NCBI RefSeq assembly: GCF_026210795.1
Contig: NC_089430.1
Span: 5,332,001-5,396,000 of the forward strand
Reading direction: 5' to 3'
DNA: 64,000 nt
From: Rhizophagus irregularis
Taxonomy: Eukaryota
Under the pieces are notes generated by a model. That model had not been told where the DNA came from, did no database searches, and saw only the letters and a program-made list of their open reading frames with translations. The first letter of the stretch is position 1. Every line of letters begins with the position of its first letter. Made by a program: the position numbers and the translations under genes. Shown in pieces: positions 1 through 64,000 of this stretch.

Positions 1-2750
1 TATTTAAAGCTTCATTCAATTCATCATTTGTAGGCTCTACCATCAAATCTTTATAAATTTTATCATTAATTTCATCTTGTGGAAAATAAAATTTTGCCCA
101 ATATTCTGATAAAATCTTAGGTTGGTTTGTTGATCCTGCAATATTTTGAAAATGATCATTTACAATATCTTTTATTTTTTCTTTATCAGTGATTAATTTA
201 TCTTCATTATTTTCTTTAATTAGAACTCTGTCTAATACAATGGATTTAATTTCACGTTCCATTACACTATTAATCATACGTTTTTGATTTTCTAATAAAT
301 CTTCACAGCGTTGGTCAATTGCTAGTTTAATTTTTTCTTCTTTGAATTGTAAAAGATCGTGATTATATAGGATTAAATAAATTTGATATAAATTTTTTAT
401 TTCTTCAAAAATTTCCTTGACACTTTTATCATCCTTAGGAATTTTATTCCAACAATAATCACTTTTTTCTCTTCCAATTTCCAATAATTTTTTTCTATAT
501 GTAATCCAATTTCTGATCACATGATTTCTTTTTCTTGAATCTTTAATTGAACGTCTGAAATTTATTAAAAATTTCATTACTTTATATGCATTAGATATTT
601 TCATTGGGTTGACTCGACTTTTAGTTAATTTGATTTTTTCTATTGGAATACAATTTTTACTAGCTTGAACAAGACCTTTTTTGATCTTATCCCATATATG
701 ATTAATATTATTTTTATCGTTAAAATTAAATTTTAAAATTTCTGAATTTGAAATGTATTTATTAAGATCATTCTGAAATAATTCCCACTGCTCTCCATCC
801 ATTTTATCATACTTATAAACTTCTTTAAATCCTTCCTTCCATTTGATATTAGCAATATTCCCAATCAAATCTTCTGACCATATTGAATACACTAACATTC
901 TATGATCAGTATTAATTGTTGTTGTATTAACAATTTTGCATTCTTGTATTTCTGAAAATAAATTTTCTGTTACCCAAATGTAATCTATTCTAGAAGAATT
1001 TTGATTTGTATTAAAAGGATAGAAAGTATTTAAGGAATGTTGTGATAAATTATCGAACATGATATAGAAAGGATCATAAAAATTTTGTTCATCTTCAATC
1101 CATTCAAAAAGTTTATGTTCTTTTTTCATTTTACGATTATTATTTTTATCATCCAGATATTTTTCATAATGAAGATTAAAATCACCAAGAAGAATAATTT
1201 CTGCATTTTGTGCTTTACTTTCTCTAACCAATTCTTTGATTTTATCAAAATAAATTTTAACTTCTTGATTAAAATTATCTAAAGTAACTCGTCCAGATTT
1301 TCCATAATAATTAATGATTCTCATTTTTTTATTTCCACTAAAAATAAAATTAACATATATAATTCTTCCTTTGAAGCTATTATAATTGACTATATGCCGT
1401 GCATAATTTTTCTTAATAATAAGACCTACGCCATTTCCCCTATAATTAGTTTCCTCATTTGCAAAATAAGTAACATAATTATTTCTATAAAAATTAAAAG
1501 AATGTTTTGCCATTTTGTTCGATATATTAGTTTCTGATAGACCCAAAATAGTTATATTATATTCACCTAATATATCAATTAAGAATTGTTTTTTAACATC
1601 AGTTATACCTTTAAGCTATTTTAATTATATCTGATAAATTGAGTCGTTGACGTGTTTTCGGATGATAAATTTGTTGATTATTTAAATTTGAACGTGATTT
1701 TTGATTAACAGGGGAAGGATTATTATAATGTTTTTCTTAAAAGAATGTGTTTTTTTATTGTTCATCATTAAAGATAATATTTAAAGGGTATTTAATCCTC
1801 ATGGGATTCATTATTGTCAATAATTTTATCCCCTTGAAAATTATTAACGTCATTATTATTGTCAGAAGTAAAATATTCCATAATTTTTGAGATATTTTTA
1901 CTCATAGTTGATAAAGCATCACCGAATCTATTGATTTCGTTATTTTGTTTATTTAAACTATTTTCTATATCTGAAGATCCTGAGGCTTCAAGTTGTTCAT
2001 TATCAACTCTTGATCGTTTGTTATTCTCATTTTGTAAGGCGATTGTACTTCTATCTTGATTGACTTTAATATTTTTTCCTGAACTTGTTGTAGACTTGTT
2101 TTCTTTATATTTATAAAATTCAGATTTAATACGATAGTTTTCTTGTTGGATTTTTTTGAAATCATTAGCTAATTTATTCAAATTCTCATTAAGTTGTTTA
2201 ATTTGCGTGAAAATTCCTTGATCAAGTGACTTTTCATTAACGTTATTATTTCTATCACGTGAAATATTTTTATTCCAATATCTATTAATATTTCCATTAT
2301 TATATTTAGAATAATTATTTGAATTATTACTTTGCTGACGTTTTTCAAATGAATTTTGTTTTGTTACATTTGCATAACTGCCTTTTTTAAACTTCTTGTT
2401 ATTTTCTTGACGAAACTCCTTAAGCTTTTGCTTTCTATTCATTACACGTGGTTTAGCAGATGGTTCAATATCACACTTACTAATTAAATGATCAAAGGAA
2501 CCACATCTATGGCATGATTTTTCACCTGGAGTTCCCCAATGAAGCGTTCTATTACAAAAAATAATATTTCTTTCTGCTGCAATACCTATATCTTCATCAT
2601 TTTCATAATAAACTATTGCATAATTCAATGGTTTATTATTATTTGGATTACGTGGTATAAAAATATACTTAGGATTGTTAACTTCTAAAGCTTCATGTAT
2701 ATCATAAGCAGTTGAATTCCATGGTAATCCAGTTAATTTAACTGTATCTT
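1..2750 (-). mobile_element. Degenerate LINE (non-LTR retrotransposon): ORF1 plus the endonuclease part of ORF2; the RT domain would lie beyond the left window edge
   Basis: Minus-strand translation gives APE endonuclease motifs ILGLSETNI (~1527-1552), GNGVGLII (~1417-1440), IILLGDFNL (~1173-1199), SSRIDYIWV (~971-997) and TDHRMLV (~892-912). ORF1 upstream has a CCHC knuckle. ORF1 homology stops at about 2750. Confidence 0.85.
1792..2750 (-). pseudogene. LINE ORF1 (gag-like protein with CCHC zinc knuckle), 5'-truncated
   Basis: ORF 1792..2628 contains CHRCGSFDHLISKC and a coiled-coil-like stretch. The frame continues upstream as TVKLTGLPWNSTAYDIHEAL and is then lost at about 2750. Confidence 0.75.
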
Positions 2751-3692
2751 GCGGAATAAATATTTCGTGATAGTATACTTTTAATGTGATAGTTATTGAT
2801 GATCACTTTCCAAATAAATGTACTTTTTCGCTTAATTTGGTATTTGTTGTGTGATCTTCAAGTATTTTTTCAGAAATTTGGAAGTGTGCAATGCGAACTT
2901 TAGAGTTCAAATTTATATATATATAAATATGAATATTGCATATTGCATATGCATATGCATATTCGCAATTTCAATAGTAATACATTATTTAATGCTAATA
3001 TTTCAAAAAATATTGCTATATGCAAATATTGCTTCTTTTGACATCATTAGAATAAAATCATAAATTGGGCACTTCTGTGATACTCTAATTGCTTGTTAAG
3101 TTTAATTATCAAATAATAAACTTTTGTAAAAAAAAAATTTTGTTGATCATCTTTTTTCTTTGATCATCGTCAAAGAGATAAATAAAAAAAAAATTTAAAA
3201 AAAATTAAAAAATGAAAAAACAATTAAATTTAATTAACATTTAATTAAATAATGAAGTTTTTACTAAAATTTATTAAATAAAAATAATATATTGTTTTAA
3301 TTATTTTATCCATTACAATATAATTTTTATATTAAAAAATTAAACCAATAATACTAGTGCGTTGATCATTTCAATGATCACATATGGGCCGATTTGTCTC
3401 TTATCACTAATTAATTTTTAGTGATAAATATGAATTATGATCAACATGCCGATCAAAATAACCTGAAAAAAGTGATAATAACAGATTATGCACAATGACA
3501 TACATGACGATTTCATATTTAAACCAATCGTTGGTATCTCGAAACTAGTTTCTCGCAACTTTGAAACCTGTCGGGAATTGGTCTGTAATTGGTTTTATTT
3601 GGAAAGAACTATTTTTTTTGGAAAACGGTAAGTAGTATATTAAAAATTTGTTATACTCACTTAACGAACCTTTTTGCTTTAAAACAATAAAA

Positions 3693-6316
3693 ATGGCTGG
3701 AACAACCGTACGCGTTCCCATTGCTGAAAGTAATTTTTTTTTCAATAATTTTTTTTAATGTAGGAACGTTCAATAACACCCTTTTATCAATAGCTACGTT
3801 TTCTAATCGTGTTTTCATACATGATTATCCAAGAAGTTCTAAAATTGAAGCACATTTTCAATCAAATGAACGATTATATATTTCATATTACAATATTATT
3901 TCTCTGGGAACCTATCCTTCCACACCGAAATTGACACAAAAATCTAAAAACAACGCGTCTCAATATCCAATACCTGACGATTATATAGTTGAAACAGAGT
4001 TTTCTGAAAGAAATCTTATATGCAAAACTAAATATATTTCAGTTTCAAAGGTATGCTATACAATTAATTGGAAGATCGGTCATGCAGAGTGGAGTGTTAG
4101 TAGTACCCAATCCTCAACAGCTGTTGTTAATACATTTTTACAGGTATTTAACTCATATTTATATTAGATAAATTTTAATAACATATAATTAATTTTAATA
4201 TTATATTTAATAGAAAATTAACTTAAAATCATCAACTAAATCATCTGGGCTTCGGTTATTTGGATTTGATATTGAGCCACTATATCATGCTCGTTTACAA
4301 ATTGGGTTTCGACCTGTTACTGCTGTTACAACAGAAGTTAATAACCGAAAATGACCACTTGAAGATATCACTTCCCGTTCACAGCAAAATAAAAGATTTA
4401 ACAGTTTCGGAAGGGATGTGCAAAAAGCAGTTGATGAATTGATTGTTAAACATAAGCTGACAAATTTATCTGGAGAGCCAATTTTATATTTACAGCATAT
4501 TGGATTCGATTGCAAAGAGAATCAAGTTTGCATCAACTTCAAAGATTCGAATTCTATGACAATTCAAACAAAACTTGATGCTATTGTACGTGTATGTGAT
4601 AAAGCACTTTTAAGTCATGATGGATACCGGCATTTAGCAGCAGTTGTGCCATCACTTTTTCGTGAGTATTTAGTTGCTGATCGCCAAAATAAGATAAATA
4701 AATTAATAAATACTCAGATACATGTGGAAATTTTTAATATAGAAGATATTGATCAATTTAATGGTGATAATAATTCTGATGAACGTGCAAGTGATACTTT
4801 AGTAAATAATAATGAAGTAGGAAATGGGGCTTATTGTTCACTTTCAACTTTACTTAAAATATTAATACCTGTTTGGAAAGGAAGAGAAAATCCTGTAATA
4901 ATTCCAGGAGATATTCTTCATATAAAACTTGGTGGAGATGGTCGTAATGTTGGGAGAAAACAAAATCATGTAATGGTTACTTTTTGTTTATTAAATGAAA
5001 AGGATGACGTACTTAAACCAAACCATCAATATAGGTATATTTTTTGTGTTGTTAAATTAATTTAATTGTAATTTTAATAAAAAATAAAATAAAATTCATT
5101 ACTGTTTTAGTATATGTCTTTACATAGGTAAAGAAAAATATGAGACATTGGATAAAGTTGGCAAAATATTTGCCTTACAGTTGGCTGATTTAAAGGAGAA
5201 TGGAATAATTGATGATGATGGCGTTCACTGGCCTGTTGAATTTTATTTTTCTGGTGATTGGAAGTTTACCTATATTATTTTAGGTCTAAATGCACCTAAT
5301 TCTGAATATTTTTGTCTATTCTGTGAATGTGATGCTAAATCCCGGCATAATATGGATCTTTTTTGGATGCCTACTGGAAATACTAAAGGTTAAAATTTTT
5401 TTCTAAATTGTTAATTGGTAAAAAATAATAATATGTAAGTAATCATTATAATTACATTAATTAGGGAAAAAAAGGGCATCTTTGTTTCCTGTGATTGATT
5501 TACTTAATTATATTCCTGACGAGCTTCATATCTTATTACGGATATCTGATATATTGATGGAATGTCTATTTAGAGATCTATTTAAGAAAAATGATTTTGA
5601 ACGAAATTTTAAAGAAAAAATTGAAAAAAAAATGAATGACATTAATATTCATTTTGAGTTTTATCGTAGTTCTGCTCGAGGTACTTGGAATTGGACATCT
5701 CTTATGGGACCAGAAAAAAAAAAATGCTACAATATTTTCCTGTAAGTGAATTTATACCTGGAGTATGTGGAGTGGATATTGAAAATTTGTGGCGTAAATT
5801 TTATCAGTTGTATGAGGTTTTAAGAAAACCATCTCACACTGAAGCAGAAATTTTAAAATTTGAGGAAGATGCAAAAAATTGGGTAAGGACTTTCTGTCGA
5901 CCTACTATAGGCCAAATGAATTCTGCAACAGCAATTCCGGGACTTTATAGGAAGGATGATGTCACACCTTACATGCATATGCTTACAATGCATGTCCCTT
6001 ATTTTATGCGTCGATTAAAAGAAAAAGGACTTTCGCTTAGATTATTTTCAACAAGTAGTGTTGAAAAAAAAAATCATGATCAGGTATGATATAAAATTTT
6101 GCATAAATATTTTCATTAACTTATTATTCATTTATTACTTATTAGGTTAGATTGTTTTTTGGAGGAACAACTATGGGAGGTGGTAAAAAAAAACTTCCTG
6201 TTGTTTATGATATACTAGTATTTGAAAATCGTCAAATCTTTTATTTGATTAATAATATTCCTAATGAAATAACATGTAGAAACATTAATATTTATAATGG
6301 TGAAAATACAATCTAA
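3693..6316 (+). pseudogene. RAG1/Transib-like DDE transposase, multi-exon, with one nonsense codon and one frameshift
   Basis: The spliced frame gives GGDGR, SGDWKF, YFCLFCEC, PDELH, YMHMLTMH and SSVEKKNH, in the same order as the RAG1 core (CDG, YDEK, CTLC, DALH, YFHKTLAH, catalytic E). GT-AG introns lie at ~4144-4212, ~5034-5110, ~5389-5464 and ~6084-6145. There is an in-frame TGA at 4352-4354 and a poly-A frameshift at ~5714-5724; the stop is at 6314-6316. The start codon is uncertain. Confidence 0.8.
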
Positions 6317-6407
6317 ATTATGTTTTACACACAAAACTACTAATTTATAAATTATTTATTTCTGGAATTCTGTTGAAATCCAAAAAAAATTCTATTAAAA
6401 TATCTAT

Positions 6408-7176
6408 AAATTATTTATTGATATCTTTTGATTTAATTCTTGAAGGGGGGAGCATGGTAAAATAAGTCTATATTGCGATTGATTATTTGTTTTAGTAATA
6501 GTAGGTATTGCAGAGTGAGCAGAAGTATGATTTTCATTTGTTACTTCATTTCTAATAAAGAAAAAAATCAAACTATTAATTCTTCAAAATTATAAAAGAT
6601 TTGTATGTGAAATTCCGAACCTTACCCATTAATAAACTCTCCTGAATCCGTTATAAATGTGCAGATAACTGTCCCACACTGAAAGATTCGGTTGTTTTCA
6701 ACCAATTCATTCTGTGCCCAACTAAAAGAAACTTCATAAATTTCCTCACTATTCACAAATAGTACATATCCCGTTGTTTTTGTTTTGGGATCTTGTCGGC
6801 AATTCCAGTATTCATAGTTTAAAATTTGCTTTAATCTACCTTCTCCCGCCTCACCTTTAAATGTACAACGATATTTTCGCAGTGCTGAATTATACCTAAA
6901 AGAAGGTTCATTTTGAAATAAATAAACAAATACATTCTCAGAAAAAGACACTTATTGAGAGTCGTTTGGATCCTACAGAATGTCTATTGAAACCAAGACA
7001 TTTTTTAATTAAGACTATAAACGCATCTTGGTAAGACACAAGCTGCTCAAAAGTGGGCTGGTGGAGTGAATGGAGATGAGGTATAGTTTTATTGTTTTTA
7101 TGCTTAGTTCTTCATGAGTTAAAAGTTGTTTTCGTGAAGAAAAGGTTTTTTGGCAAAGGTAACATTTAAAGGACAT
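6408..7176 (-). pseudogene. Accessory gene of the TIR element: N-terminal C2H2 zinc finger plus an uncharacterised domain, frameshifted
   Basis: ATG at 7176 gives MSFKCYLCQKTFSSRKQLLTHE, then a shifted frame TKHKNNKTIPHLHSL...KRLSI, then ORF 6622..6951 (SFSENVFVYLF...GEFING). An intron at ~6552-6625 precedes a short last exon. Confidence 0.55.
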
Positions 7177-7364
7177 GTTGGATACAGTAAACGCGTGATT
7201 GTGCCACAGCGTGAATTTTATTTAGTTGTGATTGGTAAACAATAATAATGACAAATGTGATATGTATAATAGTTAAACTGGTAATGATCGACCATTGATC
7301 ATTTTCGCAGGTGATATAACTGAAGTGAGCCAAATCGGCCCATATGAAAACATTGAATAATAAA

Positions 7365-7595
7365 AAAGCTCCGAACGGTTCCAATTTTCAATTCTTTTTT
7401 AATTGGTCAGAATCGTTTTCACGTAATAACTTACCATCCAGTAATCGTAGAAAGACAATTAAGAGCTCATTAGAATCCTCTTATCGAGAGCTTTCAAATG
7501 ATGCTAAAATCATAATTTTAGCATCGATAGATGGCGAGTTATTTTGACGCATTATCAAAAAAAATAAAAATTGGAATCATTTGGTCAGGAGCTTT
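7365..7595. mobile_element. Small MITE-like element with imperfect TIRs
   Basis: Left end AAAGCTCC...TTCCAATTTT versus right end AAAATTGGAA...GGAGCTTT, followed by AA (a TTAA-like junction). No coding capacity. Confidence 0.4.
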
Positions 7596-8662
7596 AAACA
7601 ATACGCAAAATAATATTATGTACTGATTATTGACATTTACTGAACATTATTCACTCAAGAATTGTTCATTGTATTGTTCAATGCTATATTATTTTTTGTA
7701 GAATTATTTTACTTTTTATTCAATACTTATCAATTTTTAAACTTCACAAAAAATTAAATACATATTTAATCAAAGGTCATCTGATTTAACTTTAAGAAAC
7801 TTTCAGTTAGTAAAGTTAATCCAAAATTAAATTTTTCATAAAATTTTATCCATTTAACTTTTATAAACCTAAATTAAATATGTGTTATATGTTCAGATAA
7901 TCCAAATTTATCAGAAAATAAAAAAATTTTTTTTATTATATTCAAAAACAAAGATAATAACCAATTCTTTTTTCAATCACTTTTCAATCACTTTTTTGTT
8001 AAAAAAAATTAATAAATATATAAAGTGGTTATTTTAAACAGTAAGTAAAAAAAAAATTATTTTTTATTTGTATTAACTTCAGTTCCCTACTTTTTTTTAT
8101 ATAAAATATTAAAAATATAAGCTATGATATAAGATTTTTGATTTTTTTTAAGTTAATAAGATTCTAAAATTTTTTTTTTAATAAGAAATGATAACTTTAT
8201 GTCAGTTTATGCAATTAACAAGTTCATTAATATCTTGACATTAATCAAATAATTTTAAACTCATTTAAAAGGTAAGAATGTACTTTATTTTAGCATTACT
8301 AGGCATGGTGATATCAACAATCAAAGATAAAAATTTAAAAAAAATATATTGAATGCATTTGCTCAGCAACCAGTGAATCAATTCATTTGTTTTTGGATTC
8401 ATTAGATAGGTCTTAATTTTCTCTTTTGGATGAATATAAATTCATCCATTTATCTTACATAGACATTAAGTTATTTGCAATTTTGTTCCAAGAATTTTAT
8501 TTTGATTATTTAAATTTTAATAATGGTGTATTAAAAAAAATATGATTAACAATTTTATTCATAGATTATTATTTTGTGCAACCAGTAATTTGGTAAAGTT
8601 TGTTTTTTAGAATCAAAAAGTGCTAATTCCAAAATTGGCATATATGAACAAATGATATGCTT

Positions 8663-8688: not shown

Positions 8689-9139
8689 TTGTATTTAATT
8701 TTTTGATTGTTATTACTAAGAAATAAATAAAGTTAAAAAAATTAAAAACGTATAGATGACCATGCAGATCTTGTGATAATCAATTAAAAAAGTGTTAGAT
8801 GAAATTTTTTTTCAAAAATTTAAAATTTTTTCTTTTTATAAAAACATCATAAAATTTTTTTTACATTTTTTTCTATTTGTAAAATTAAATATTTGGATAT
8901 TACATAATTACAAATTAAAATTATAAGTGTATTTCTTTTAAAAAATACTGTGATATTTCATAAAAAATATTTTTTTTTACTATTTTTATTTTTAAACTAT
9001 TTGAATTTATAATTAATGAAAGAATTAATTTAAAATTCATGTTATTTCAAATTTTTGTCAACTCAGTTCTTAATTTTTATATTACATTTTTTTTTATATA
9101 AAATTTTTTTAAATTAAACTTCTTTTTCAAAACACACTA

Positions 9140-10970
9140 TAATCTCCACTTTGGACAAATGAAATCAACTTTATTTATTAATTGAATGTTGTTCAGGCGG
9201 GTTAAAAGCACTTGAATATTAATTTTCATGAATGTAGATGTAGTGCTTAGAGAAGATTGCATTTTTCTTGATGATATTAACTCTCTTTTCTGTTTTTTTA
9301 ATTTAAAGCGTAATATCTCCACTTTGGACAAATGAAATCAACTTCATTTATTAATTGAATGTTGTTCAGGCGGGTTGATTCTACTTGAATATTAATTTTC
9401 ATGAACATAGATGTAGTGCTTAGAGAAGATTGCATTTTTCTTGATGATATTAACTCTCTTTTCTGTTTTTTTTTTTAATTTAGAGCGTAATATCTCCACT
9501 TTGGACAAATGAAATCAACTTTATTCATTAATTGAAAGTTGTTCAGGTGGGTTGATTCTGCTTGAATATTAATTTTCATGAATATAGGTGTAGTACTTAG
9601 AGAAGATTGCATTTTTTTTGATGATATTAACTCTCTTTTCTGTTTTTTTTTTAATTTAGAGCGTAATATCTCCATTTTGGACAAATGAAATCAACTTTAT
9701 TTATTAATTGAAAGTTGTTCAGTGGGTTGATTCTACTTGAATATTAATTTTCACGAACATAGGTGTAGTGCTTAGAGAAGATTGCATTTTTCTTGATGAT
9801 ATTAACTCTCTTTTCTGTTTTTTTTTAATTTTGAGTATAATATCTCCACTTTGGACAAATAAAATCGACTTCATTTATTAATTGAATGTTGTTCAGGTGG
9901 GTTGATTCTACTTGAATATTAATTTTCATGAATATAGGTGTAGTGCTTAGAAAAGATTGCATTTTTCTTGATGATATTAACTCTTTTTTCTGTTTTTTTA
10001 ATTTAGAGCGTAATATATCCACTTTGGACAAATGAGATCAACTTTATTTATTAATTGAAAGTTGTTCAAGTGGGTTGAAACCACTTGAAATTTAATTTTC
10101 ATGAATGTAGGTGTAGTACTTAAAGAAAATTGCATTTTTCTTAATGATATTAACTCTCTTTTCTGTTTTTTTTAATTTAGAGCGTAATATATCTACTTTG
10201 GACAAATGAAATCAACTTTATTTATTAATTGAAAGTTGTTCAGGTGGGTTGATTCTACTTGAATATTAATTTTCACGAACATAGGTGTAGTGCTTAGAGA
10301 AGATTGCATTTTTCTTGATGATATTAACTCTCTTTTCTGTTTTTTTTTAATTTTGAGTATAATATCTCCACTTTGGACAAATAAAATCGACTTCATTTAT
10401 TAATTGAATGTTGTTCAGGTGGGTTGATTCTACTTGAATATTAATTTTCATGAATATAGGTGTAGTGCTTAGAAAAGATTGCATTTTTCTTGATGATATT
10501 AACTCTTTTTTCTGTTTTTTTAATTTAGAGCGTAATATATCCACTTTGGACAAATGAGATCAACTTTATTTATTAATTGAAAGTTGTTCAAGTGGGTTGA
10601 TTCTACTTGAATATTAATTTTCATGAATGTAGGTGTAGTACTTAGAGAAAATTTCATTTTCTTGATGATATTAACTCTCTTTTCTGTTTTTTTTTAATTT
10701 AGAGCGTAATATCTCTACTTTGGACAAATGAAATCAACTTCATTTATTAATTAAAAATTGTTCGGGTGGGTTGAAACCACTTGAAATTTAATTTTCATGA
10801 ATGTAGGTGTAGTGCTTAAAGAAAATTGCATTTTTCTTAATGATATTAACTCTCTTTTCTGTTTTTTTTAATTTAGAGCGTAATATATCTACTTTGGACA
10901 AATGAAATCAACTTCATTTATTGATTGAAAGTTTGTTCAGGTGGGTTGATTCTACTTGAATATTAATTTT
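9140..10970. repeat. Tandem repeat, ~174-176-bp unit, ~10.5 copies
   Basis: TCTC(C/T)ACTTTGGACAAAT-like motif recurs at ~9143, 9317, 9493, 9669, 9843, 10017, 10191, 10365, 10539, 10712 and 10887. Confidence 0.95.
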
Positions 10971-11501
10971 TATAAGATTTCATTTTTTTGTAGCTGTATT
11001 AACTTTAAAACACTTATTACAACTTACATCATTATTTTAAATCATAAGAATTAATTTATGTCATTGGCTAATTATAATCACATTGATACTAAGGATTTTT
11101 TTTATTTTTATATTTGATTTAATAATTTAATAAAATATTATTAAAATCAAATTCATATAAATGCAACTAATATTAATAATTGTAATTTAAGAAGTAAATT
11201 CATTAACCAAATCATGTAAATTCTATGCTTAAATTATGTAATTTCTGTGATCAAATCAATATAAATTCAGCATAAATTATGGTTGATACATTTTGTAATA
11301 TGGAATTGTGGCATTTTCCGTATACCTATATAGATTAGAAATATTATTTTTAAGAAAAAATCATATAAAACCTTATTAAAAACATGATTTTTTATAGGGT
11401 CTAATTATAATAAAATTTTATTATTCAGTATTATTTTAGTGATTTTACATACAATTCAATTTATTTATATCAAAGAATTTTTTAATTATAATGTTATATT
11501 T

Positions 11502-15383: not shown

Positions 15384-17464
15384 TTATAATATTTGTTCGA
15401 AACTTTTTCTGGGCTTATTAAATTCGATACTTTGAACCTAAAAAAAACAATATATTGAAAATGAATAATAAGCAAAATCAATCATTAACCATATTAATAT
15501 CTAATTGAGAAATATCAATTTGTAAAGATTCTATTTAATAAGTAAAAATTTATTAGTTAATATCTTTTAAAACTAATTTACATTTTAAAAACGAAATTAT
15601 TAAACGATACCTGAAAATTTCTCACTAATTATATTATCATTTTGTTCATAATAATCGTCAGAATTTTTTGGTTCGGGAAGATTATTAAAATCAAGTAATC
15701 TACTTGTATAAATAGCTTCTGAATGTGTATTATATGATATTCCTAAATTATTTGAAGTTATACCGCTATTTGACGAATTATTGTTTATTTCATCTGCTTC
15801 CTTAATTTGTGCTTGTAATTCTATTGTTTGTTTATCATTTGGTTCATATTGCCATCTAAGTAAAATATTGTATATGTCTTCTGCTGTTGGTCGATTTAAC
15901 GGATTAGAGTCTAAGCATTTTTTAATTAAGTGCACAATTAATTGCGGCACTTTAATGTTAAACCTTGGTCTAATTCCTTTGCAAACTTTTATTGCTAAAT
16001 TATTATCATGGTTTAAATCATGATATGGGGGTAATCCAGAAATTACTTCATACATTACTATACCAAAACTATAAATATCGGCAGCTGTTGTATAATTTTG
16101 TCCTCTTAAAATTTCAGGAGCTATATAAGGTAAAACACCATATTTCTTATTTTTCGTATTTTCTGATGTATAACAATCTGCAGGCTTACATAATCCCATA
16201 TCAGTTATAGTAGTTTTATTTTTAAACTTTAATATATTTCCAATATGTAAATCTCGATGAATTAATTCCTTTTCATGAATACATTTAAGTCCAATAATAG
16301 TATAATGTAAATATTTAAACATTTCAATCCAATTAAGCTTATTATATTCTTTATCTAAATAATTTCGTAAACTTCCATCTTCTGCATATTCTAAGACCAT
16401 TATATAATTTTTCGTTTTTGGATCCTGAGTTATTCCATATAATCTGACAATTGCATTATTATCCATTTTCACTTTATTATGAAGCATGATCTATGATGTA
16501 AATGTAAAAATACAAAATATATTAGTAAAACCAACAATCTAGGTATTATGATCAAAAATATTATACTAAATTAATCAAATTATACCTCATTCATAAATCC
16601 TAATGTAACATTTTTTGAATTGTCTAAACTTTTCAGAGCTACAAACATATCTTTATTATATCTTTTCCAATTTTGGTTACTATTATCCCAACCAGCTAAA
16701 TAACCATCAATCCAATTTGCTCTATATACTTTACCAAACCCACCTTTTGCAGTATATATAATATCATAAAATCTATCATGAGGTATCCATTCTAAAGCAT
16801 TTGTAAATAGTTCAATATTATTATGTATTAATAGCTGACTGTCTTGAATAAATATATCAATATCATCATTACCACTGGTCCAATTTTCAAAATTTTGTTG
16901 AAAATGCATTGCATAACATGTATAATTACATTTTTTACATATAGTATTATTCATCAAAACCATCATGTAACTTTTTGTTTCTGGATCTTGAGTTATTCCA
17001 AAAGGTATATTAATCTACAAATACAAATATATTAGTAGAAATTAAAAATTTCAAAATTTAATTCATTATCATACCTCATCCATAAGTTTTATTCTAATAT
17101 TTTTTAAATTATTTAAACTTTTCAGAATTACATTTTTACTTCCATATCTTTTCCAATTTTTATTTTTATTATTCCAACAACTTATATTTCCATCAATCCA
17201 ATTTGCTTTATACACTTCACCAAATTCATCTTCTGCAATATATTTAATATAATACAATCTATTATAGGGTATCCATTCTAATGCTTCTTTTAAATCATTA
17301 TGAGATGATAGCTGAGTATCTTGAATAAATTTGTCAATATCATTATTACCACTAGTCCAATTTTTGAAATTTTGTTGAAAACGTATTACGTAACATATGC
17401 GATTACATTCTTCACATTTCTTGACATGTGATAAATTAGTTGTTTCCTTAATACCTAAATCCAT
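15384..17464 (-). CDS. TKL-type protein kinase with 2 N-lobe repeat exons (kinase gene 1, ~597 aa)
   Basis: Exons 17464-17075, 17014-16586, 16490-15611, 15530-15490 and 15437-15384 splice in frame through GT-AG introns. Motifs: KGGFGKVY, VALK, HRDLHIGNIL, DMG, APE, DIYSFG. Confidence 0.88.
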
Positions 17465-20400
17465 TGACTTTTTAAGTTATTAATAATAAAGTCAGGTTTA
17501 TAGGTCATCTAAAAAATATAAAAAAAGTGAATGAATTAAATTTTTTTTAAGCTTAAAAAATTTTAAGGAATTTTTTGGATGCACAATTGCACATTATGTG
17601 CAACAAAATCCTTTTTGTTTACGGGTGTCGATCAAATATTAGTATTCATTGTCTCACTATGTAGATCACGTAAAGATTCAAAAATCTTTTCTAAAAACCT
17701 ATGCAAAACTATAAACTGAAAAACTTGGAAAACTAATCACTCCCTCCTCAACCTTGAAGGATACATATAATGAAAAATCCCAGTGAACAATTAACTATGC
17801 ATTAATTTGGCCATGGGTCAACTGTATACCGGTCAATTTGTCCAATGGACAAGTTGACCTGCTTACATAATTAAGATCATCCACCGATTGCAAAAAAAGA
17901 ATTCTAAAACAATATAATAAAAATACACTAACAATACAATATATTATAACGATATTAAAAAAAACTATCTAATAAATCGATATAATATTAATAGTAAAGA
18001 TAATAAAAATAAAACTAACTAATTTTGAAATTATAGAGTGATTAGTAATTATTACCTAAGACAAATGATCAACCGATTTCGTAATACGATGATGCGATTG
18101 CACGGAATTTTTCGGATGTCGATCTAAAAGTTAATCGAGAACTTCTAAATAATGAACAAATTTTGAGTTCAAATTTGGGTAAAATAGGTTAAAACTATTA
18201 AATGGTTAAATTTGGATATCTTAAAATTACGTCTTTATTAAAAATTTTTTGCATCGTTTGACACACATATAAACTAGTGAAATAACAGATGACTTTCATA
18301 ATCACTTACAGTACAACTTTCTTAATATTTAACAAAGTTGAAAAACAAAGTTATATTTAAAAGGAATTTAAATAATAAAATAATAAAAAAAGCCTTTTCA
18401 TATTTAATCTGGCACGAACATCAAGATTAAGATCAATTTGATGGGTCGAAGACTATTTGATAAATAGATTCACGTTTCTATTATATATTTAAAAATTAGT
18501 ACATTTAAAAAATACCGCATGTGGCAAAATTGAAATTTTTCAAAAGATTTACAGTACGTAGAAGTCGTAGCATTAAGGTTTGTAATTTATTTTACATGAT
18601 GATATATACTTAAATTTACATACGTTAGATTATTTTAAGTTTATCAGAATATTTAGTAATCACATAAAGATGATTATAATGCTTTTCTTGCTTTTATTTT
18701 TTCCACCCTCTGTAAAGTTTAAAAAAGATAGTCTGATAGTCAATTTTTAGGAACAGGTAGAAATTATTTTTATATTTAAAATATGGATAATAAGAAACTT
18801 TGGTGATAAAACTTATTCATCATTGTCAATATATAATTTTATCAGGTTGAAATTGTGTTTTTTTCGAAGGGTTTTTTTAATACTTCACTTCGTTATTTTA
18901 TTCTATTAGTCTGAATAGTAATTTATAATTTAGAAATTTCTTAGCACATTTTTTTATCATCATACAACATTAAAAAAGAGTCTTTTTTCATTAGATGGCA
19001 AATTAATAAATTAAAAATTTAAACAAATAAAATAAAATATTAATTATTTATATATGTATTGCCTGTGATAAGAGTATTTCCGCTATTTAATTACTATTTC
19101 TACTACGAGTGCAACGTAAATTAGCGACTCAAAAAAGTGACTAACATAAATGGAAAACATAAGTACGAACCATATGATCCAGTTTTTTTATTAAGAATAT
19201 AAAAGAATTTTTTTAAATAAAAAAAAATGAAAAAGAAAAACGTAACCAAAAATTTAAAGGATAGAATGAAACAATGATTTTTTCTTAATACAAATCATTT
19301 ATACATAAGTGTAATATATATTGATAGTATATTATACACATTTGTTGTATAAGAATAATACTAGTATTTATATTAATGTTCCTAGGGTAAATTATTGTTG
19401 CTTTGTACTAAAAATCTTCTTTTTGTTCCTTTAGGAGCTGGATATTGTAAAAAAAAAAATGGGGTAACTCGATTGTCATAGAATTTTTTTTTTTTTCAGT
19501 TAGAAATTCTGATTTTCTGAAATTTAATTTTTTTTTATATTTATAAACCTATATAATTTATTTATACAATACTAATTTACCAATTGTTTAATTTTCATTT
19601 TACTATCTATCATGCATGAAAACGAATTAGTAATAAAAAATTAGGTTAATAAGATAATAGTTAAAAAGTCATGATTATAATTATAATAAATCACTATTTA
19701 TCGTTATAACTGGTAAGTTAACTTTGAAGTTCATTCATATAAAATTATTCCAACTATGGTTTAATATAACTGAACATTAATATATTTGTTCAGCTATTTA
19801 CAGTACTGCGTAATAAGTAAAAAAAATAAAAAAAAAATTGGGTTTAAACATTATATTTAAAGTACGTTAATATCAAGATTAATTTCTTTGGTGACTCATC
19901 TTTATAAACCGAAATTAGATAAAAATTTTATAATGCTGACTTATATTTGTAAACATATATTTGCTTATCATTATTACGAGATTTATTGGAACTCATACTA
20001 ATATCTAATTCAATTTCTTTTGTATAGTAATCTATAAATCATAAAAGAATCAATTAAAATTATGAAATGAATATGTTATTGTTATATGTAATTTTATTTA
20101 CCACTATTTCATTTTCTTCTTTTGATACTTTGATCTAAATAATGTGAATTTTAAAATAGTAGAAAGTATAATAAAAAAAATAATAATTTATTAAATTGAT
20201 TATCGTACCATTGTCATTACTGTTTTCAACTGAATCATATTCAAAATTTCTTTTATGTTTAAAATATGATTAATAATAAGTAATAACATAAACATAACAT
20301 GATTAAACAAAAACTGAATAATTATCAGTAGATATTAAATTATTTTCTGATAATAATAAAATGGATCTAAGGATTGTTTAAAAATAAATAATTTTCTTGC

Positions 20401-23025: not shown

Positions 23026-26000
23026 TAGTGTTTCGATCCGGATAGAAACCGTTATCCGGATAAATTAAAAAAATTATCCGGTTTTTATCCGGATAATCCG
23101 GTTCGGATAAAAATCCGGATATATCCGGATAGAAACCGAAATCCGGATAAAAATTATACAATTTTTTTTTTGTAAATCAAGAAATTTATAGCATATATTA
23201 GATTTAATTCATAGCATAGATTTAATTAAATTCGTGGCATTTTGATTAATTTTGTGGCTTAAATGTGTGGCTTTGTTAATTAGTTTCGTGGCACCTATTT
23301 AAATAATTTCGTAGAATTTATTTAATTAATTTTGTGGCTTAAATTTATGGCTTTATTTAATTATTTTCGTGGCATTTGCTTAATTAATTTCGTAGTGTTT
23401 ATTAGTTTAATATCATAGTATTTTCTTAATTAATTTTGTAATTAACTTCATTTATGTCTTTGTTTAATTATTTTCGTGGAATTTGTTTAATTAATTTCGT
23501 ATTATTAATTTCATGGAATTTATTAAATTTGTAGCAATAAAATTTTGTAAAATTTTACAATATTAATCAGGTAAATTTATTATTTAGACCTATTGATTTA
23601 TGACAATTATTATTTGTTTATTAAAACTTTTACAAATAAAATCACAGTTAATTCAGTTCTAACTTCTAAGCCATAATAAAGATTAATAAATACTGTACAT
23701 TCCCTTGTTGAATTTTTCATAATTTCAATTAAAGTTTATTTTATTGAAAGCTAAAATAATTCACAAAATTATGGAAAATAACAATGATCAAGATTACATT
23801 ATTACCTTAAGTGAAAATGAAGGTTCTAGTGATGAAATTGTTGAAATTACTCCAACACCACTAGCAAAGCAAAAAAGAGGACGTCCTGCAAAATTATCTA
23901 AAGCCCTTGGAAAACAAAAAATGACAAATACTACACTAGAATCAACAGATCGAGCACCAAATGATTCAAATCCCTTTAAACAAACTGCTGCAATAATTAA
24001 ACCACAAACAAAAGTAAGTTGGGTATGGGATTATTTTATTAAAAAACAAAATGATAAAGGAGAAATACGTGCATATTGTCAGTTTTTATTAGATGATGGA
24101 GAAAAATGCTCAAAAAATTACAAATATGATGGGTCTACAGGAAATCTCAGTTACCATCTTGTTAAACATGGAATTATACCACCTCTAGAAAGCGGCATTA
24201 TATCACCAATGCATACTCAATCTGCATCCAATAAAAATGGACAAAAAGAAAAAGAATTATCAACACTACGGTGGATTTTACTTACAACTCAACCATTATC
24301 AACCATAACTCAAAAGGCATATATTGAGCATATGTATATTATAGATCCACAATTTACAGTTCCTGGAGAAAAAAAATTAAGAATGATGATTGCTCGCAGT
24401 TATGGGTATAATAAAGAAAAATTGAAACTGCTTTTAAAAACTGCTCAATCAATATCTTTAACTACTGATTTGTGGTCTTCTCGTTCAAAACATGGATATT
24501 TAGGCTTAACAGCAACTTGGATCAATAAAAATTTTGAAATAATGGATGTTTTGCTTGAAATATCCTATTTTCCAACACCACATACTGCAAAAGCAATTAC
24601 TGAAGGTATTAAAAATGCTATGCAAAAGTGGGAAATTGAAAATCTTGTTGTATCAATAACAACAGACAATGGAGCAAATGTAGTAGCTGCTATTCGAGAT
24701 TTAACACCAATTAAAAGACTCTCATGTGCTGCTCATACTTTGCAGCTGGCAATTAGTAAAGGATTAAAAGTTGTAGAAAATTTGGTATCACGTACAAAAC
24801 AACTAATAAATTTTTTTTCTACTCAAAAACAAATTGAACGATTGATTAAAGTGCAAAAAGAGATTGGTTATGAAGAACCATTACATTTAATACAAGATAT
24901 ATCTACTAGGTAAATATTTTAATTCAATTTAATTATTTAATAAATTTTATCCTAATTTATATAATTATTGTTGTTTAATTACTTAAGGTGGAACTCTTCA
25001 TATTTGGCATGGGATCGGCTGATTTTTCTTCAATATGCTGTGCTTCAACTTAGTGTAAACTTGTCTTGTTCTCTTATATCTGAAGAAAAAACTGATGGAA
25101 TTAGATTAAAAAAAATTATGATAAAAGATAATGAATGGGAGTTATTAGATGAATTATGTAACATTTTGGCACCATTTGAGAAAGCTACACGAGATTTTTC
25201 TGGAAATACTTATGTTACATTAAGTCAAATGTTTCCTATTATTACAGATCTCACAAATTCTTTAAAACCATCTGATAATTCATATGAAGTATTAGAAGAT
25301 TCTGATGATAATACTATTAATTCTGATATAGTAGAAGAAGAAAGTTCACAAATTGAAGTAGATTATAGTAATATTTCAGAAGTATTAAAAAATGTAAAAA
25401 ATAAAATTTATTTAGGTTTGAAACATTATTGGGCAATGCCAGATGAGTTTGGCATTATGGCAGCACTTTTGGATCCAAGGTATAAAGATCTTAATTTTAT
25501 AACTGATGAAGAAACAAAAGTAAAAATTCATTCAAGTTTACAAATACAATATGATCAATTAAAGAGAGAAATGCAGCAACAAACTAGTACTCCACCATCA
25601 CCCACAATTTCAACAATTTCAACTACCTCAACAAGTTCAACTCCTAGCATGAGATCTTTACATGAGCATCAAGAAAGACGTCAACAAAAAGTAAAAAAAG
25701 TGTTTCAAACAAAAGAAAGTTCTACTTCATCATCAGCAATAGCTGATGAAATTACTACTTATTTTCTTTTACCAGTTGCTAGGGAAAATAAAAACCCATT
25801 AGATTGGTGGAAATCAAAACAGGAAATTTTTCCAGTTCTTTCTATTATTGCACGAAAATATTTAGGAATTCCTGCTACTTCTGTAGCTTCTGAACGACTT
25901 TTCTCAGATGCAGGAAACCACATTACAGCAAAAAGAAGCTTATTGGATCCTGCTTTATTAGGTAAAATGGTATTTTTAAAACGTAACATGAAAACTATGG

Positions 26001-26460
26001 ATCATATTAATATATTTCCACCAGATTTGGATGTGGAAAATAATGATTATGTGGAAGATGAACACGAATTGGAAGAATTATTAGATGAATGATATTACAT
26101 TTTTCATTATTATTTTTATTAAATGTATTGAATTTTATTCTATTAAATATTTTTTATTAAATGTATTGAATTTTATTTTATTAAATAAAGAATTTTATTA
26201 TAAGAATATTTACATGTTTTTAATTATTAAATTATTCTATCATATACTTTGAAATAAAAATGAAAATTAAAAGAACTATTATTTAAGATATTTAATATTA
26301 AAAAATTTTTTTTTTTATATTTTTTATCCGGATACCGGATCTGACCCGGATATTTTTATCCGGATAATTATCCGGATAAAAACCGCGTTTATCCGGATAT
26401 CCGAAAAAAATAAATTATCCGGGTCCAACCGGTTGGACCCGGTCACGGATCGAAACACTA
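23026..26460 (+). mobile_element. Complete hAT-superfamily DNA transposon (3,435 bp)
   Basis: Perfect 15-bp TIRs TAGTGTTTCGATCCG (23026-23040) and CGGATCGAAACACTA (26446-26460); perfect 8-bp TSD GAGATGTA (23018-23025 and 26461-26468); many subterminal ATCCGG(AT) motifs at both ends. Confidence 0.97.
23771..26092 (+). CDS. hAT transposase with BED zinc finger and C-terminal dimerisation domain (~747 aa, two exons)
   Basis: Exons 23771-24909 and 24988-26092 (78-bp GT-AG intron) rebuild STRWNS. Motifs: AT-hook-like KRGRP, BED-like WDYF..C..C..HLVKH, TTDLW, TTDNG, CAAH, LDPRYK, PLDWWK, PATSVASERLFS. Confidence 0.95.
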
Positions 26461-28559: not shown

Positions 28560-29300
28560 CTATTTAGTTACATTATAACTATTCTGTACTTATTAAATTT
28601 TGACATTTTGGACCTACAAAAAAAATAGTATATTAAATAAATAATATTATTGATTATTAATTATATAAATTAAAAAACTTACATTTTAATTATTATTCAA
28701 TTGAGATATATCAATTTGTAAAGATTCTATTTAATAAAAGGATTTATTAGTATATTTAAAACTGATTTGCATTTTTAAAATAACAAAATTATTAATAATA
28801 CCCGAAGATTCCTGACTTATTATATTATCACATTGTTCATCAGAATTTTTTATTTTGGGCCTACAAAAATAAAATAGTACATTAAATATAAATAATATTA
28901 TTAATAATTGATCATATAAATTAAAAAACTTACATTTTATTATTACTTAACTGATATATATCAATTTGTAGGGATTCTATTCGATAAAAGCAATTTTATT
29001 AGTATATTTAAGCATTTTTAAAATAACAAAATCATTAATTAATACCTGAAGATTCCTTGCTTATTATATTATCATATTGTTCATCAGAATTTTTTATTTT
29101 GGGCCTACAAAAAAAAACAGTATACTGAATATAAATAATATTATTAATCATTAATCATATAAATTAAAAAACTTACATTTTATTATTATTCAATTGAGAT
29201 ATATCAATTTGTAAAGATTCTATTTAATAAAAGGATTTATTAGTTTATTTAAAACTGACTTACATTTTAAAATAACAAAATTATTAATTAATACCTGAAA
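28560..29300 (-). repeat. Three tandem ~243-bp units, each made of intron/mini-exon A/intron/mini-exon B
   Basis: AATACC(T/C)GAA recurs at ~29291, 29041 and 28796; ACTTACATTTTA recurs at ~29171, 28928 and 28677. Confidence 0.85.
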
Positions 29301-32300
29301 ATTCATTGCTTATTATATTATCATTTTGTTCATAATAATCATCAGAATTTTTTGGTTCAGGAAGATTATTGAAACTGAGCAATCTACTTGTATAAATAGC
29401 TTCTGAATGTGTTTGATATATTCCTAAACTAGTTGAAGATATATTTTTATTTGATGAATTGTTTATTTCATCCGCTTCTATAATTTGTGCTTGTAATTCT
29501 ATTGATTCATCATATTGCCATTTATGTAAATCATGTAAAATATCTTGTGCTTTTGGCCTATTTAATTGATTTGCATCTAAGCAATTTTTAATTAACTGGA
29601 TAATTAATTTTGGCACTTTAATATTAAACTTTGGTCTAAGTCCTTGACAAATTTTTATTGCCAAATTTTCGTCATGATTAATATCACAATATGGAGGTAA
29701 TCCAGAAATTAATTCGTACATAATTATACCAAAACTGTAAATATCCGCAGCTTTTGTATAATTCTGTCCTCGTAAAATTTCAGGAGCTATATAGGGCAAA
29801 ATACCATATATATTATTTTTTTGTATATCACAATTTGCAGGTTTACACAATCCCATATCAGTTATAGCAATTTTATATTTAAATTTTAATATATTGCTAA
29901 TATGTAAATCTCGATGAATTAATTCCTTTTCATGAATAAATTTAAGTCCAGATATAATATCAAATAAATAATTGATTATAATACTCCAATTAAATTTATC
30001 ATAATTTGTGTTCAAAAATTTTCGTAAACTTCCATCATTTGCATATTCCAAAACCATTACATAATTTTTTGTTTCTGGATTTTGAGTTATTCCATAAAGT
30101 TTTATAATCCTAAAATCACCATTTAATTTATGATGTAATATCACCTGCATAATAAAAGATAAAAAATTTAATATATTAAAAGGATAAATTGAAATTTTAT
30201 TGAATAAAAATTTATTTATACCTCATTCATAAATTCCAATGTAATTTTTTTTGAATCATTTAAACTTTTTAAAGCTACAAACATATTTTTATTATATCTT
30301 TTCCAAATTTTATTTTTATCATCCCACTTACTATCTAACCGTCCATCTATCCAATTTGCTTTATATACTTTGCCAAATCCACCACTTGCTATGAATTTGA
30401 TATTACAAAATTTACTATAAGGTATCCATTCTATCACATCTGTTATATTATTATGAGTTAATAACTGAGTATCTTGAATAAACTTATCAATATTATTATT
30501 ACCACTGGTCCAGTTATTAAAATTTTGTTGAAAGTATATTGTATTACATATCTCATTGCATTTTTTACATATATTATTCAAAACCATCATGTAATTTTTT
30601 GTTTCTGGATCCTGAGTTATTCCAAAAACTTTTTTAATCTGCAAATATAAATATGTTAACAAAAATTAAAAATTACAAAATATATTAAATGATAGATTAT
30701 ACCTCATTCCTGAATTCCTCTGCAATATTTTTTGAATCATTTAAACTTTTTAGAATTACAAACATATTATTTGCTCTTTTCCAATTTTGATTTGTATTAT
30801 TCCAATAACTTATATATCCATCAATCCAGATAGCTTCATATTCTTTGCTAAACCCTGCAATATATTCAATATTACAAAGCCTATCATAAGGTATCCATTC
30901 TATTACTTCTGTTGTATTATTATGAGCTGATAACTGAGAATCTTGGATAAATTTATTAATGTCATTATCACTGGTCCAATTTTCAAAATTACGTTGAAAA
31001 TATATTGAATTACACATATTATTGCATTTTTCACATATATCATCCAAAACTATCATATAACTTTTTGTTTCTTGATTTTGAGTTATTCCATAAAATACAT
31101 GATTCATTTTAACCTACAATATAATAATATATTAAAAAATTAAAATATTTGTAATTTTAATAATAACAAACTTACTATACCTTATTTATAAATTCTAATG
31201 TAAGATTATTTGGAGTATTTAAGTCCTTCAAATTCACAAACATATTAAAACCTTCTCTTATCCAATTTTGCTCATTATCATTCCAATAACTTATTTTTCC
31301 ATCAATCCAATTTGCTCTATACACTTTGCCAAACTCATCATCTGCAATATATTTAATATTATATAATCTATTATAAGGTATCCAATCTAACACTTCCTTT
31401 ATATCTTTATGAGCTGATAGTTGAGTATCTTGAATAATTTTATTTATATCTTTATTACCACTAGTCCAATCCATGAATTTCCGTTGAAAGTAAATGGTAT
31501 TACATATTTTGTTGCATTTTTCACATTTATCATCCAGAACTATCATATAATTCTTTGTTTCCAGATCCTGAGTTATTCCATATAATTCATGATTTATTTT
31601 AATCTAAAGTTAAATTATGTATTAGAAAAACAAAATTTTATAATTTTGGTGAGTAACAAATTTATTATACCTTATTTATAAATTCTAATATAAGATTATT
31701 TGGAGTAGTATTCAAGCTCTTCAAATTCACGAACATATTACAACCTTCTCTTTTCCAATTTTGCTCATCATCATCCCAATAATTCATTTTTCCATCAATC
31801 CAATTTGCTATATATATTTCTTTATCAATATATTTAATATTGTACAATCTATATAAGGTATCCATTCTAGTGTTTCTTTTATATCATAATGAGCTGATAT
31901 TTGAGTATTTTGAATCAACTTATCAATATCTTCATTACCACTAGTCCAGTCCATTAATTTTCGTTGAAAGTAAATGGCATTACATAACTTATTGCATTTT
32001 TTGCATATATTATTCAAAACCATCATGTAATTTTTTGTTTCTGGATCTTGAGTTATTCCAGAAGCTTTTTTGATCTACAAATATAAACATGTTAACAAGA
32101 ATTAAAAATCTCATAAATATATAAATAATTAGATACCTCATTGTTGAACTCCAATGCAACAATTTCTGAATTATCTAAACTTTTTAGAATTACAAGTGTA
32201 TTATGACCTACTCTTTGCCAATTTTTTTTATAGTTATTCCAATACTGTATACATCCATCAATCCAATTAGCTTTATATTCTTTGCCAAACCTTCCATTTA

Positions 32301-43300: not shown

Positions 43301-44319
43301 ATAATCTATTTTAATCTAAAATATAAATATATTAGTAAAATCAAAAATTTCAAATTTTTATTATTACTGCATAATATACCTCATTCATAAATTCTAATGT
43401 AATATTTTTTGACTTATTTAAGTCTTTTAGTTCTACAATCATATTTTGATATTTTCTTTTCCAATTATGATTTTCACAATCCCAATACCATAAATATCCA
43501 TCATACCAATTTGCTTTATGTATTTCACCAAACCTACTTTCTAAAATATGCTTGACATTATAAAGTCTATTATAAGGTATCCATTCTAATATATCTAATA
43601 CTCCATATTTAGTATGATCTGATAACTGAATATCTTGAATAAAATTATCAATATAATTATCACCACTAGTCCAATTTTCAAAATTTCGTTGAAGATGTAT
43701 TGCGTTACATATAAAATTACACTTTTTACATTTATTATTTAAAACCATATAATATAAATTTTTTGTTTCAGGATCCTGAGTTATTCCATAAAATTCACTA
43801 TCTATTTTAACCTATAAATAATAATATATTAGTAAAAATAAAGATCTCAAAAAAAAAAAAAAAAAAAATTTAATAATAATAAATTATTAATTATACCTCA
43901 TTCATAAAATTTAATGTAAGATTTTTTGAATTATTTAAAGTTTCCAGATTTACAAACATATTTTGATAATTCCTTTTCCAACTTTCATTATGATGATCCC
44001 AGTATAGTATACGTCCATCAATCCAATTTGCTCTATAAATCTTACCAAACTTACCTTTCGCAATATATTTTATGTCATAAAATCTATTATAGGGTATAAA
44101 TTCTAACGCTTCTTCTGTATTATCATGAGCTGATAGTTGTGTATCTTGAATAAATTTATCAATATCATTGTCGCCACTAGTCCAATTTACAAAATTTCGT
44201 TGAAAGTGTATTGAATTACATGTATTATTACATTTTTCACACATCACATATAATTCATTAATATGTGATGATGATTCCTTAGTAGTTAGCTTATTAATAT
44301 CTTTGATAAAAGAATTCAT
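40328..44319 (-). CDS. TKL-type protein kinase with 6 N-lobe repeat exons (kinase gene 3)
   Basis: Six homologous exons (ORFs from 43891-44319 to 41365-41775), kinase exon 40443-41300 (HRDLHIGNIL, DIG, APE) and a last mini-exon ESLRFDLPQLNTN* ending at 40328. Confidence 0.85.
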
Positions 44320-63675: not shown

Positions 63676-64000
63676 TGACTTTATATGCAATATAAAGATT
63701 AATGAATAAATAATAAAGGCAGAATAAGATACTAGTGCAGAATCGAAAAAATGATTTTGTTCCGAGGCCGATAATATTTACTATATATGAAAAAAAATAA
63801 AAAGTTATAAAAAAAAATAAATGAAATTTAGATTGCTCTTATTTTAATATTTATAGGGAGTAAAATCATTACCTTTTTTTCATAGGTAACACGCACTTTA
63901 TTGATAATGCATATTGACAATGCATAAAATGAAATCATGCATGATCAATCACATGATATATCTTTCCGATCATCAACTTTTTATTTAAAAGTTTGTCAAT

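Follow-up and report, generated by a model that had tools for sequence, protein, structure and literature searches.

What kind of transposon joins a RAG1-like transposase to a second gene that is not RAG2? This question is raised by a 3,966-bp element at positions 3381..7346 of a 64,000-nucleotide stretch of Rhizophagus irregularis DNA (NC_089430.1, 5,332,001 to 5,396,000; hereafter the window). A preliminary description, made from the letters alone, had read it as a RAG1-related element of the CMC group, with a zinc-finger partner gene placed tail-to-tail to the transposase. Our analysis makes it probable that the element is an inactivated two-gene cut-and-paste transposon of arbuscular mycorrhizal fungi, whose transposase has a predicted RAG1/Transib fold and which likely forms a lineage of its own beside canonical Transib and RAG-like (RAGL) elements.

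Ends and insertion site of the element

The left terminal inverted repeat (TIR; 3381..3400, plus strand) and its right counterpart (7327..7346, minus strand) share a perfect 16-bp core, CATATGGGCCGATTTG, and are identical at 19 of 20 positions; the same end motif recurs in related loci. Within the window, an 18-mer of the TIR has no further match at up to 4 mismatches. The 20-bp repeats reported earlier proved to be the true ends, as seen from the joint of an empty site. Indeed, contigs bridging 3379 to 7347, with the element absent, occur in three of the four runs, and in one of the four (run X5, one contig) the letters could be read: the left flank extends through 3380 and is followed by the right flank starting at 7348. 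Since both joint contigs and an empty-site contig exist, the 3,966 bp represent a real insertion. Apart from the element itself, the only difference between the filled and the empty site (run X5) is one extra A, at 3380 and repeated at 7347, so that the sole duplication is 1 bp. A TA duplication within the palindrome CATATG was considered and rejected, because CATATG is missing from the empty site.

The immediate flanks, 3370-3376 and 7351-7357, are the two arms of a short inverted repeat, TTCAATG / CATTGAA, with the insertion point between them, so that the target may be a hairpin-forming site. The host sequence of the element (2800-3380 and 7347-8600) is a repeat of high depth in all four runs, some copies of which lack 2879-3024 and others carry 10 additional bases after 8241.

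The transposase gene and its lesions

The transposase gene (3693..6316, plus strand) comprises about 768 codons in six exons (3693-3729, 3764-4143, 4214-5034, 5111-5388, 5465-6083 and 6146-6316). All five introns are GT-AG and agree with annotated homologues by tblastn. The motif series of the preliminary description was recovered at the expected places and in the expected order: GGDG with the first D (4931-4942), SGDWK with the second D (5250-5264), CLFC as C-x2-C (5313-5324), DELH (5518-5529), YMHMLTMH as H-x4-H (5970-5993) and VEKKNH with the E (6060-6077). All six were located in the sequence, and the second D, C-x2-C, H-x4-H and E were also aligned to RAG1 by profile; the RNase H/zinc-binding core (4931..6077) is backed by this alignment and by the predicted fold. 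The RAG1 core contains D600, D708, the zinc ligands C727/C730/H937/H942 and E962, and the correspondence in order that had been proposed is supported by both the family profile and the fold match.

The gene is broken by an in-frame stop at 4352-4354 (codon 186), where other copies have A at 4352 in all four runs and thus no stop, and by a frameshift within the run of 11 A at 5714-5724. The partner gene carries frameshifts near 7110 and 6943. With lesions in both genes, this copy is inactivated and its mobility is possible in trans only. Two RNA runs contained only 0.10-0.12 of the words.

Predicted RAG1-like core and FYR domain

The fold was modelled on an intact Diversispora homologue, P0011, which is 69% identical over the tested piece. 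The model has a mean predicted local distance difference test (pLDDT) score of 68, with most of the core above 80. It resembles RAG1 (Z 20.1, root-mean-square deviation (rmsd) 3.7, 401 residues aligned; Foldseek E 5e-9), HzTransib (Z 19.2) and BbRAG1L of ProtoRAG (Z 18.8), against Z 8.6 for the hAT transposase Hermes. An unbiased fold search over 48,161 chains gave the same ranking and added the P element (13.3) and an FYR domain (10.1). Among Atlas look-alikes, clusters of Mucoromycota and Cnidaria came first and RAG1 followed (0.95), the named ones being RAG1 and DUF1280.

A profile built from 29 members, fungal and animal, pointed in the same direction: all 15 of its matches among PDB sequences were RAG1 or RAG1L (best E 1.7e-4), with an alignment covering the DWK of the second D, C-x2-C, YxH-x4-H and ExxN, and HzTransib was not matched in that set. 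Single exons and a fungal-only profile had no matches among PDB sequences and none in Pfam. The earlier assignment to RAG1-related transposases of the CMC group is strengthened by these profile and fold matches.

The N-terminal region (approximately 3764..4300, plus strand) was missed as a domain in the sequence-only reading. Residues 25-213 of the P0011 model match the FYR domain of TBRG1 (2wzo; Z 10.1, rmsd 4.0, 118 aligned, 18% identity), a likeness recognised by fold search only, since the N-terminal sequence profile gave no FYR match. This region is present in 41 of 53 fungal homologues and in 2 of 130 other relatives. Thus, the transposase is predicted from the homologue's model to consist of a RAG1-type core and an N-terminal FYR (FYRN+FYRC) domain. 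The resemblance to the nonamer-binding region of RAG1 noted upstream of the core did not hold up: the stretch borders a part of the model that has low confidence, and what precedes it takes the predicted FYR fold. In chromatin proteins of the MLL and JmjC kind, FYR domains serve as protein-binding modules, a role backed by a JMJ14 study; in the fungal family, on the other hand, the predicted domain is fused to a transposase.

The convergent partner gene

The partner gene (6404..7176, minus strand) encodes about 230 residues in two exons, 7176-6626 and 6551-6404, with its ATG at 7176, its stop at 6406-6404 and one intron. As had been described, the two genes lie tail-to-tail; their stop codons are 87 bases apart. 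A model of the fungal partner (pLDDT 85) consists of a C2H2 finger at the start and one conserved alpha/beta domain; it had no Foldseek match at E 0.001 and no match of Z at least 5 among the 48,161 chains, by which a new fold is not yet proven, and its Atlas matches were all below 0.9. A six-bladed kelch or PHD structure, as in RAG2, was not found in this confident model, in line with the earlier view of the partner as a C2H2-finger protein.

We found 163 partner homologues, and the named ones are all from Glomeromycota. A metagenome scan, from which the best 80 of 112 loci were kept, provided 47 in which the transposase C-terminus is present and followed by 700 bases or more. The partner is convergent with the transposase in 40 of these and lies on the transposase strand in none. 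The proposed two-gene layout is therefore kept across the family, and the expected co-occurrence of the genes stands for these 40 loci and fails for seven without a downstream partner (L032, L033, L037, L041, L043, L049 and L080). Three of the seven, L032, L033 and L037, belong to one divergent family with partner-like frames upstream instead. Among seven intact partner exons, all 21 pairs have a ratio of nonsynonymous to synonymous substitution rates (dN/dS) of 0.14-0.29, and the partner is under purifying selection. Since, in addition, its position and orientation are fixed across transposases down to about 33-40% identity, the partner is useful to the element.

The divergent subfamily represented by L033 (550-10172) and L037 has ends CATATCAGCGGATTTG and no partner in the 2 kb downstream. 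Its upstream minus-strand frames encode a partner and a stand-alone FYR-type N-terminal domain; it is possibly a larger multi-gene element. At L049, a TET/JBP dioxygenase frame (2056-3507, minus strand; Pfam E 2e-12) is found in convergent orientation some 1 kb behind a transposase of the family with no C2H2 partner; no right end was found at this locus, and the frame is perhaps inside the element. TET-bearing transposons have been described for Basidiomycota.

Spread, ends and target duplications in fungi

Among 616 candidates, 53 were transposase homologues, and the named ones all come from Glomeromycota (Rhizophagus, Diversispora, Gigaspora, Glomus and Entrophospora); the viral collection contained no relative. 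The end motif occurs in 33 of the 80 loci and at both ends in 14, delimiting elements of 3.7-4.3 kb, and the consensus over 10 elements is CATATGGGC.GAT.TG. The ends begin with CATATGG, that is with CAT and not CAC; the CACAATG heptamer and the nonamer of Transib are lacking from this consensus, and the termini are of the CMCT type, 5'-CA..TG-3'. A 5-bp duplication was found in none of 15 two-ended copies (0.07 expected), with flanks that are partly chimeric; 1-bp duplications occur in five (4.2 expected) and 2-bp duplications in three (1.1 expected). Since L026 and L028 share the right flank but not the left, some metagenome flanks seem to be chimeric, and this duplication test is weak.

In the accessible text of Muszewska et al. 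(PMC5751038), Transib is absent from fungi as judged by the RAG1 Pfam model, whose cut-off our family does not reach. By profile, Transib in R. irregularis is listed by Oliveira and Corradi (PMC11075540), with no description. Kojima (PMC12730594) defines the CMCT clade with no mention of Rhizophagus in the accessible sections, and the end motif is absent from the supplement text of that paper. The open-access literature searched, to which Repbase, Dfam and subscription journals do not belong, held no account of a two-gene family of this kind or of an FYR-transposase fusion. The two-gene RAG1-fold lineage is undescribed or barely described.

Relatives beyond the fungi

A profile search of 1.84 billion representatives returned 2,839 cluster representatives at E <=0.001. 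Named distant relatives come from Lithocolla, Nematostella, Argopecten, Clytia, Stylophora and Acropora. The nearest relatives of the fungal family are in a nucleariid, cnidarians, a scallop and animal-branch contigs. These relatives, like the link to published bacterial sequences given below, had escaped the sequence-only reading. A tree of 50 rows, hand-chosen from the longer matches and free of any outgroup, puts fungal, Lithocolla and soil members on one side and the animal branch on the other (split 100/100), with Lithocolla on a long branch. It fits vertical descent in opisthokonts, without showing it.

The C-x2-C-x3-GH-x4-C (CCGHC) tail known from RAG1L is found in 84 of 118 further relatives, mostly of the animal branch, in none of the 53 fungal homologues and not in the window protein. 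Among 60 animal-branch relatives, 19 match Pfam RAG1 and 7 match DUF1280, all below cut-off, and Transposase_21 and Plavaka are absent from the matches listed.

Two animal-branch loci, L082 and L083, also carry a convergent frame directly behind the transposase, which in L082 opens with a chromo-barrel, matched below cut-off as MSL3-like (E 0.0015) and as Tudor-knot (E 0.011); L081 has no partner gene. No TIRs could be assigned at L081, L082 or L083. Helix and strand order and a conserved Trp look alike by eye in fungal and animal-branch partners. By hhalign, the similarity is not significant (E 0.045-0.066), and 98 and 66 of 500 shuffles score equally high. Collectively, the homology of the two partners, tested in three ways, is not supported.

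The published 'bacterial Transib' sequences

Tao et al. 2022 (PMC9435367) rooted RAG1L and Transib on a bacterial branch. Two proteins from Thioglobus, CthTransib_0091 and CthTransib_0066, are printed in the accessible part of that paper as bacterial, single-gene Transib. In a comparison by eye, covering 3 of its 42 bacterial sequences, they show the motif series of our family, the one being of P0184 type and the other of Nematostella type; other motifs stand in the subgroup I and II Transibs printed there, that from Entomoplasmatales among them. The contigs concerned measure 4.6 and 3.2 kb, have coverage 5.4 and 0.19 and lie in genome bins, and the first gene model contains an intron. By eye, the CthTransib_0091 contig also has a convergent frame, left unannotated, whose chromo-barrel start resembles L082 and L083.

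One genome per prokaryote species was searched with both profiles; the fungal one found no locus and the animal one found three (L081, L082 and L083). Two of the three could be placed, and these fall inside the animal branch, together with Stylophora and Argopecten. All have broken transposase genes and flanks with other transposons and simple repeats. The long contigs, assigned to bacterial or archaeal bins, look like animal DNA, with a Tc1-like element, miniature inverted-repeat transposable elements and simple repeats; the taxa of these bins we take to be sponge symbionts. Since the motifs compared by eye place both printed proteins in the animal branch, these two 'bacterial Transib' sequences of Tao et al. 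are likely to be host DNA in bacterial bins. The bacterial-origin claim has been taken up by Martin et al. (PMC10462144, accessible part).

Classification of the element and weighing of alternatives

The element probably works like Transib, is laid out like ProtoRAG and is filed as neither. The hallmarks of the CMCT clade, a D-D-E site with C-x2-C and H-x3-4-H placed after the second D and before the E, are present, and the core fold of Transib is present in the predicted homologue model. ProtoRAG and its RAGL relatives carry RAG1L and RAG2L tail-to-tail between TIRs, and our family shares with ProtoRAG (BbeRAG1L-RAG2L) this convergent second gene inside the TIRs, the predicted core fold, the DDE and zinc ligands and, in animal-branch relatives, the CCGHC tail. 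It differs in a partner of C2H2 and alpha/beta type instead of kelch/PHD, in an FYR N-terminus where others have Chapa or RING, in CAT ends with no 5-bp duplication, in fungal members that lack the CCGHC tail, and in sequence (12-15% identity). With Transib (HzTransib; subgroups I and II, Tao et al. 2022), it has in common the predicted core fold, a length of about 4 kb and short TIRs. Unlike these, it has a second gene, ends without the CACAATG heptamer and nonamer, another motif before the ZnH2 region and a profile that does not match HzTransib. CthTransib_0091 and _0066 (PMC9435367) agree by eye with the animal branch in motif series; as described in the accessible text they are bacterial and single-gene, whereas the fungal branch has introns, FYR, a C2H2 partner and defined ends.

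It is unlikely that the element is a true Transib/RAGL member, a fungal ProtoRAG analogue whose ends and duplication length have drifted, although its best fold scores are those of RAG1, HzTransib and BbRAG1L, the RAG1L-type tail occurs in 84 of 118 further relatives, and the accessible parts of three papers are favourable: two apparent family members are filed as Transib (PMC9435367), Transib is listed in R. irregularis (PMC11075540), and Transibs with 3-bp and TA duplications are reported (bioRxiv 10.64898/2026.08.26.747230). Indeed, CAC at positions 1-3 is conserved in all Transibs (PMC1131882, accessible part), while our ends read CATATGG; the duplication is 1 bp at the empty site and 5 bp in none of the 15 copies with their chimera-prone flanks; by eye, the family has SLxGxxK where subgroup I and II Transibs have T/D-GN..RR; the family profile misses HzTransib, and the partner is not RAG2. 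A strict filing under Transib or RAGL is therefore not retained. A catalogued CMCT lineage (EnSpm/CACTA, Mirage, Chapaev, Plavaka, ESTA or Lanisha), with a RAG1 likeness generic to the clade, seems distinctly improbable. Its case lies in CA..TG ends and a short duplication, which would fit the CMCT description in the accessible text of PMC12730594, with 2-5 bp there against 1 bp at our empty site, in the C-x2-C and H-x3-4-H common to all CMCT groups, and in the DUF1280 matches of 7 of 60 relatives. EnSpm elements, moreover, carry a second gene too. On the other hand, neither Transposase_21 (Tnp2) nor Plavaka was found at E <=1, 0.05 and 0.1 in 16, 23 and 60 proteins (the first 16 including other window proteins, the last result being that of the rows listed), the Atlas names RAG1 and not EnSpm, and the end motif is missing from the supplement text of the ESTA paper (PMC12730594). 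Chapaev is defined by an N-terminal Chapa zinc finger, with or without RING (PMC4411706, accessible part), and our family lacks both, its N-terminus being a predicted FYR domain. Lanisha is described in PMC8245031, while PMC13465315, as far as accessible, merely cites Transib.

Several points weigh against the lineage of its own that we prefer. Its fold comes from the model of a Diversispora homologue with mean pLDDT 68, no Pfam family exceeded its cut-off in the 16, 23 and 60 proteins scanned, and none of the fold matches was a structure from EnSpm, Mirage, Chapaev, Plavaka or ESTA. Since ESTA matches RAG1 too, by HHpred (PMC12730594, accessible part), a RAG1 fold is insufficient for placement within the clade. 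The class assignment and the separation from other CMCT lineages rest on ends, duplication, motifs, folds and profiles, the tree being confined to the family and its relatives. In addition, the 80 loci are non-independent, several being one family in different samples; seven of 47 have no downstream partner; and the duplication length relies on 1 bp at the empty site and 2-bp matches in 3 of 15 copies with chimera-prone flanks.

Genomic surroundings

The window is eukaryotic DNA of 25% GC with kinase gene arrays, a hAT transposase and a LINE-type ORF1. The latter (1792-2802, minus strand) has weak Pfam matches to an RNA-recognition motif and a zinc knuckle, and its region is covered by long identical contigs in all four runs, up to 2747. 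About 11 tandem copies of a 174-bp unit occupy 9022-10973, and a hAT-type transposase with a BED finger lies in two long frames at 23723-26092 (plus strand). Kinase genes of the expanded Glomeromycota type are found at 15600-17476, 29284-34541, 40443-44355, 56285-59657 and 63322-63777, each preceded by tandem copies of a 140-residue exon with C-x2-C motifs.

Proposed mechanism and significance

By analogy with known systems, the transposase of an intact copy would bind the CATATGGGC.GAT.TG ends and use its D-D-E site and zinc module to cut there, probably by nick-and-hairpin cleavage as in RAG, Transib and ProtoRAG; the element would then be pasted with a short duplication, of 1-2 bp and not 5. 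For the partner, a role as accessory factor is likely, in transposition or targeting or in survival in silenced chromatin (escape from silencing), because it lies inside the ends under purifying selection, and where the fungal one has a C2H2 finger, animal-branch elements carry a chromo-barrel at the same position. Since FYR is a protein-binding module in MLL and JmjC chromatin proteins, the FYR domain may be a docking place for the partner or a host factor. We regard it as rather less likely that the partner plays no part in transposition and is cargo, for instance an anti-silencing or DNA-binding passenger acquired separately in fungi and animals. The seven loci without a downstream partner, one with a TET/JBP frame there instead, the lack of a partner in L081 and the non-significant similarity of fungal and animal partners would agree with such a passenger; the fixed position and orientation down to about 33-40% transposase identity and the dN/dS of 0.14-0.29 speak against this reading.

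As the conserved layout shows, a transposase of predicted RAG1 fold can form a stable tail-to-tail pair with a gene other than RAG2. The family gives a name to part of the unclassified two-thirds of Rhizophagus repeats and adds an FYR-transposase fusion, of which none is described in the open-access literature searched. Its enzymes are common in marine animals and likely include sequences published as the 'bacterial ancestor' of RAG. How RAG1-RAG2 arose has long been asked, and present models start from Transib 'in bacteria' (PMC9435367, PMC10462144); the element likely ties those sequences to a large eukaryotic family. We tentatively suggest, as a conceivable wider picture, that mycorrhizal fungi, a nucleariid and numerous marine invertebrates share an ancient opisthokont lineage of RAG1-fold transposons. 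It would possess a tail-to-tail accessory gene of its own, together with modules of chromatin type (FYR in the fungal transposase, chromo-barrel in the animal partner), in parallel to RAG1-RAG2 but without RAG2, and 'bacterial Transib' would be animal-host DNA from it. If this is true, the bacterial-origin claim would be deprived of the examples printed for it, and in early RAG1-like enzymes the surface that binds RAG2 may initially have served another partner.

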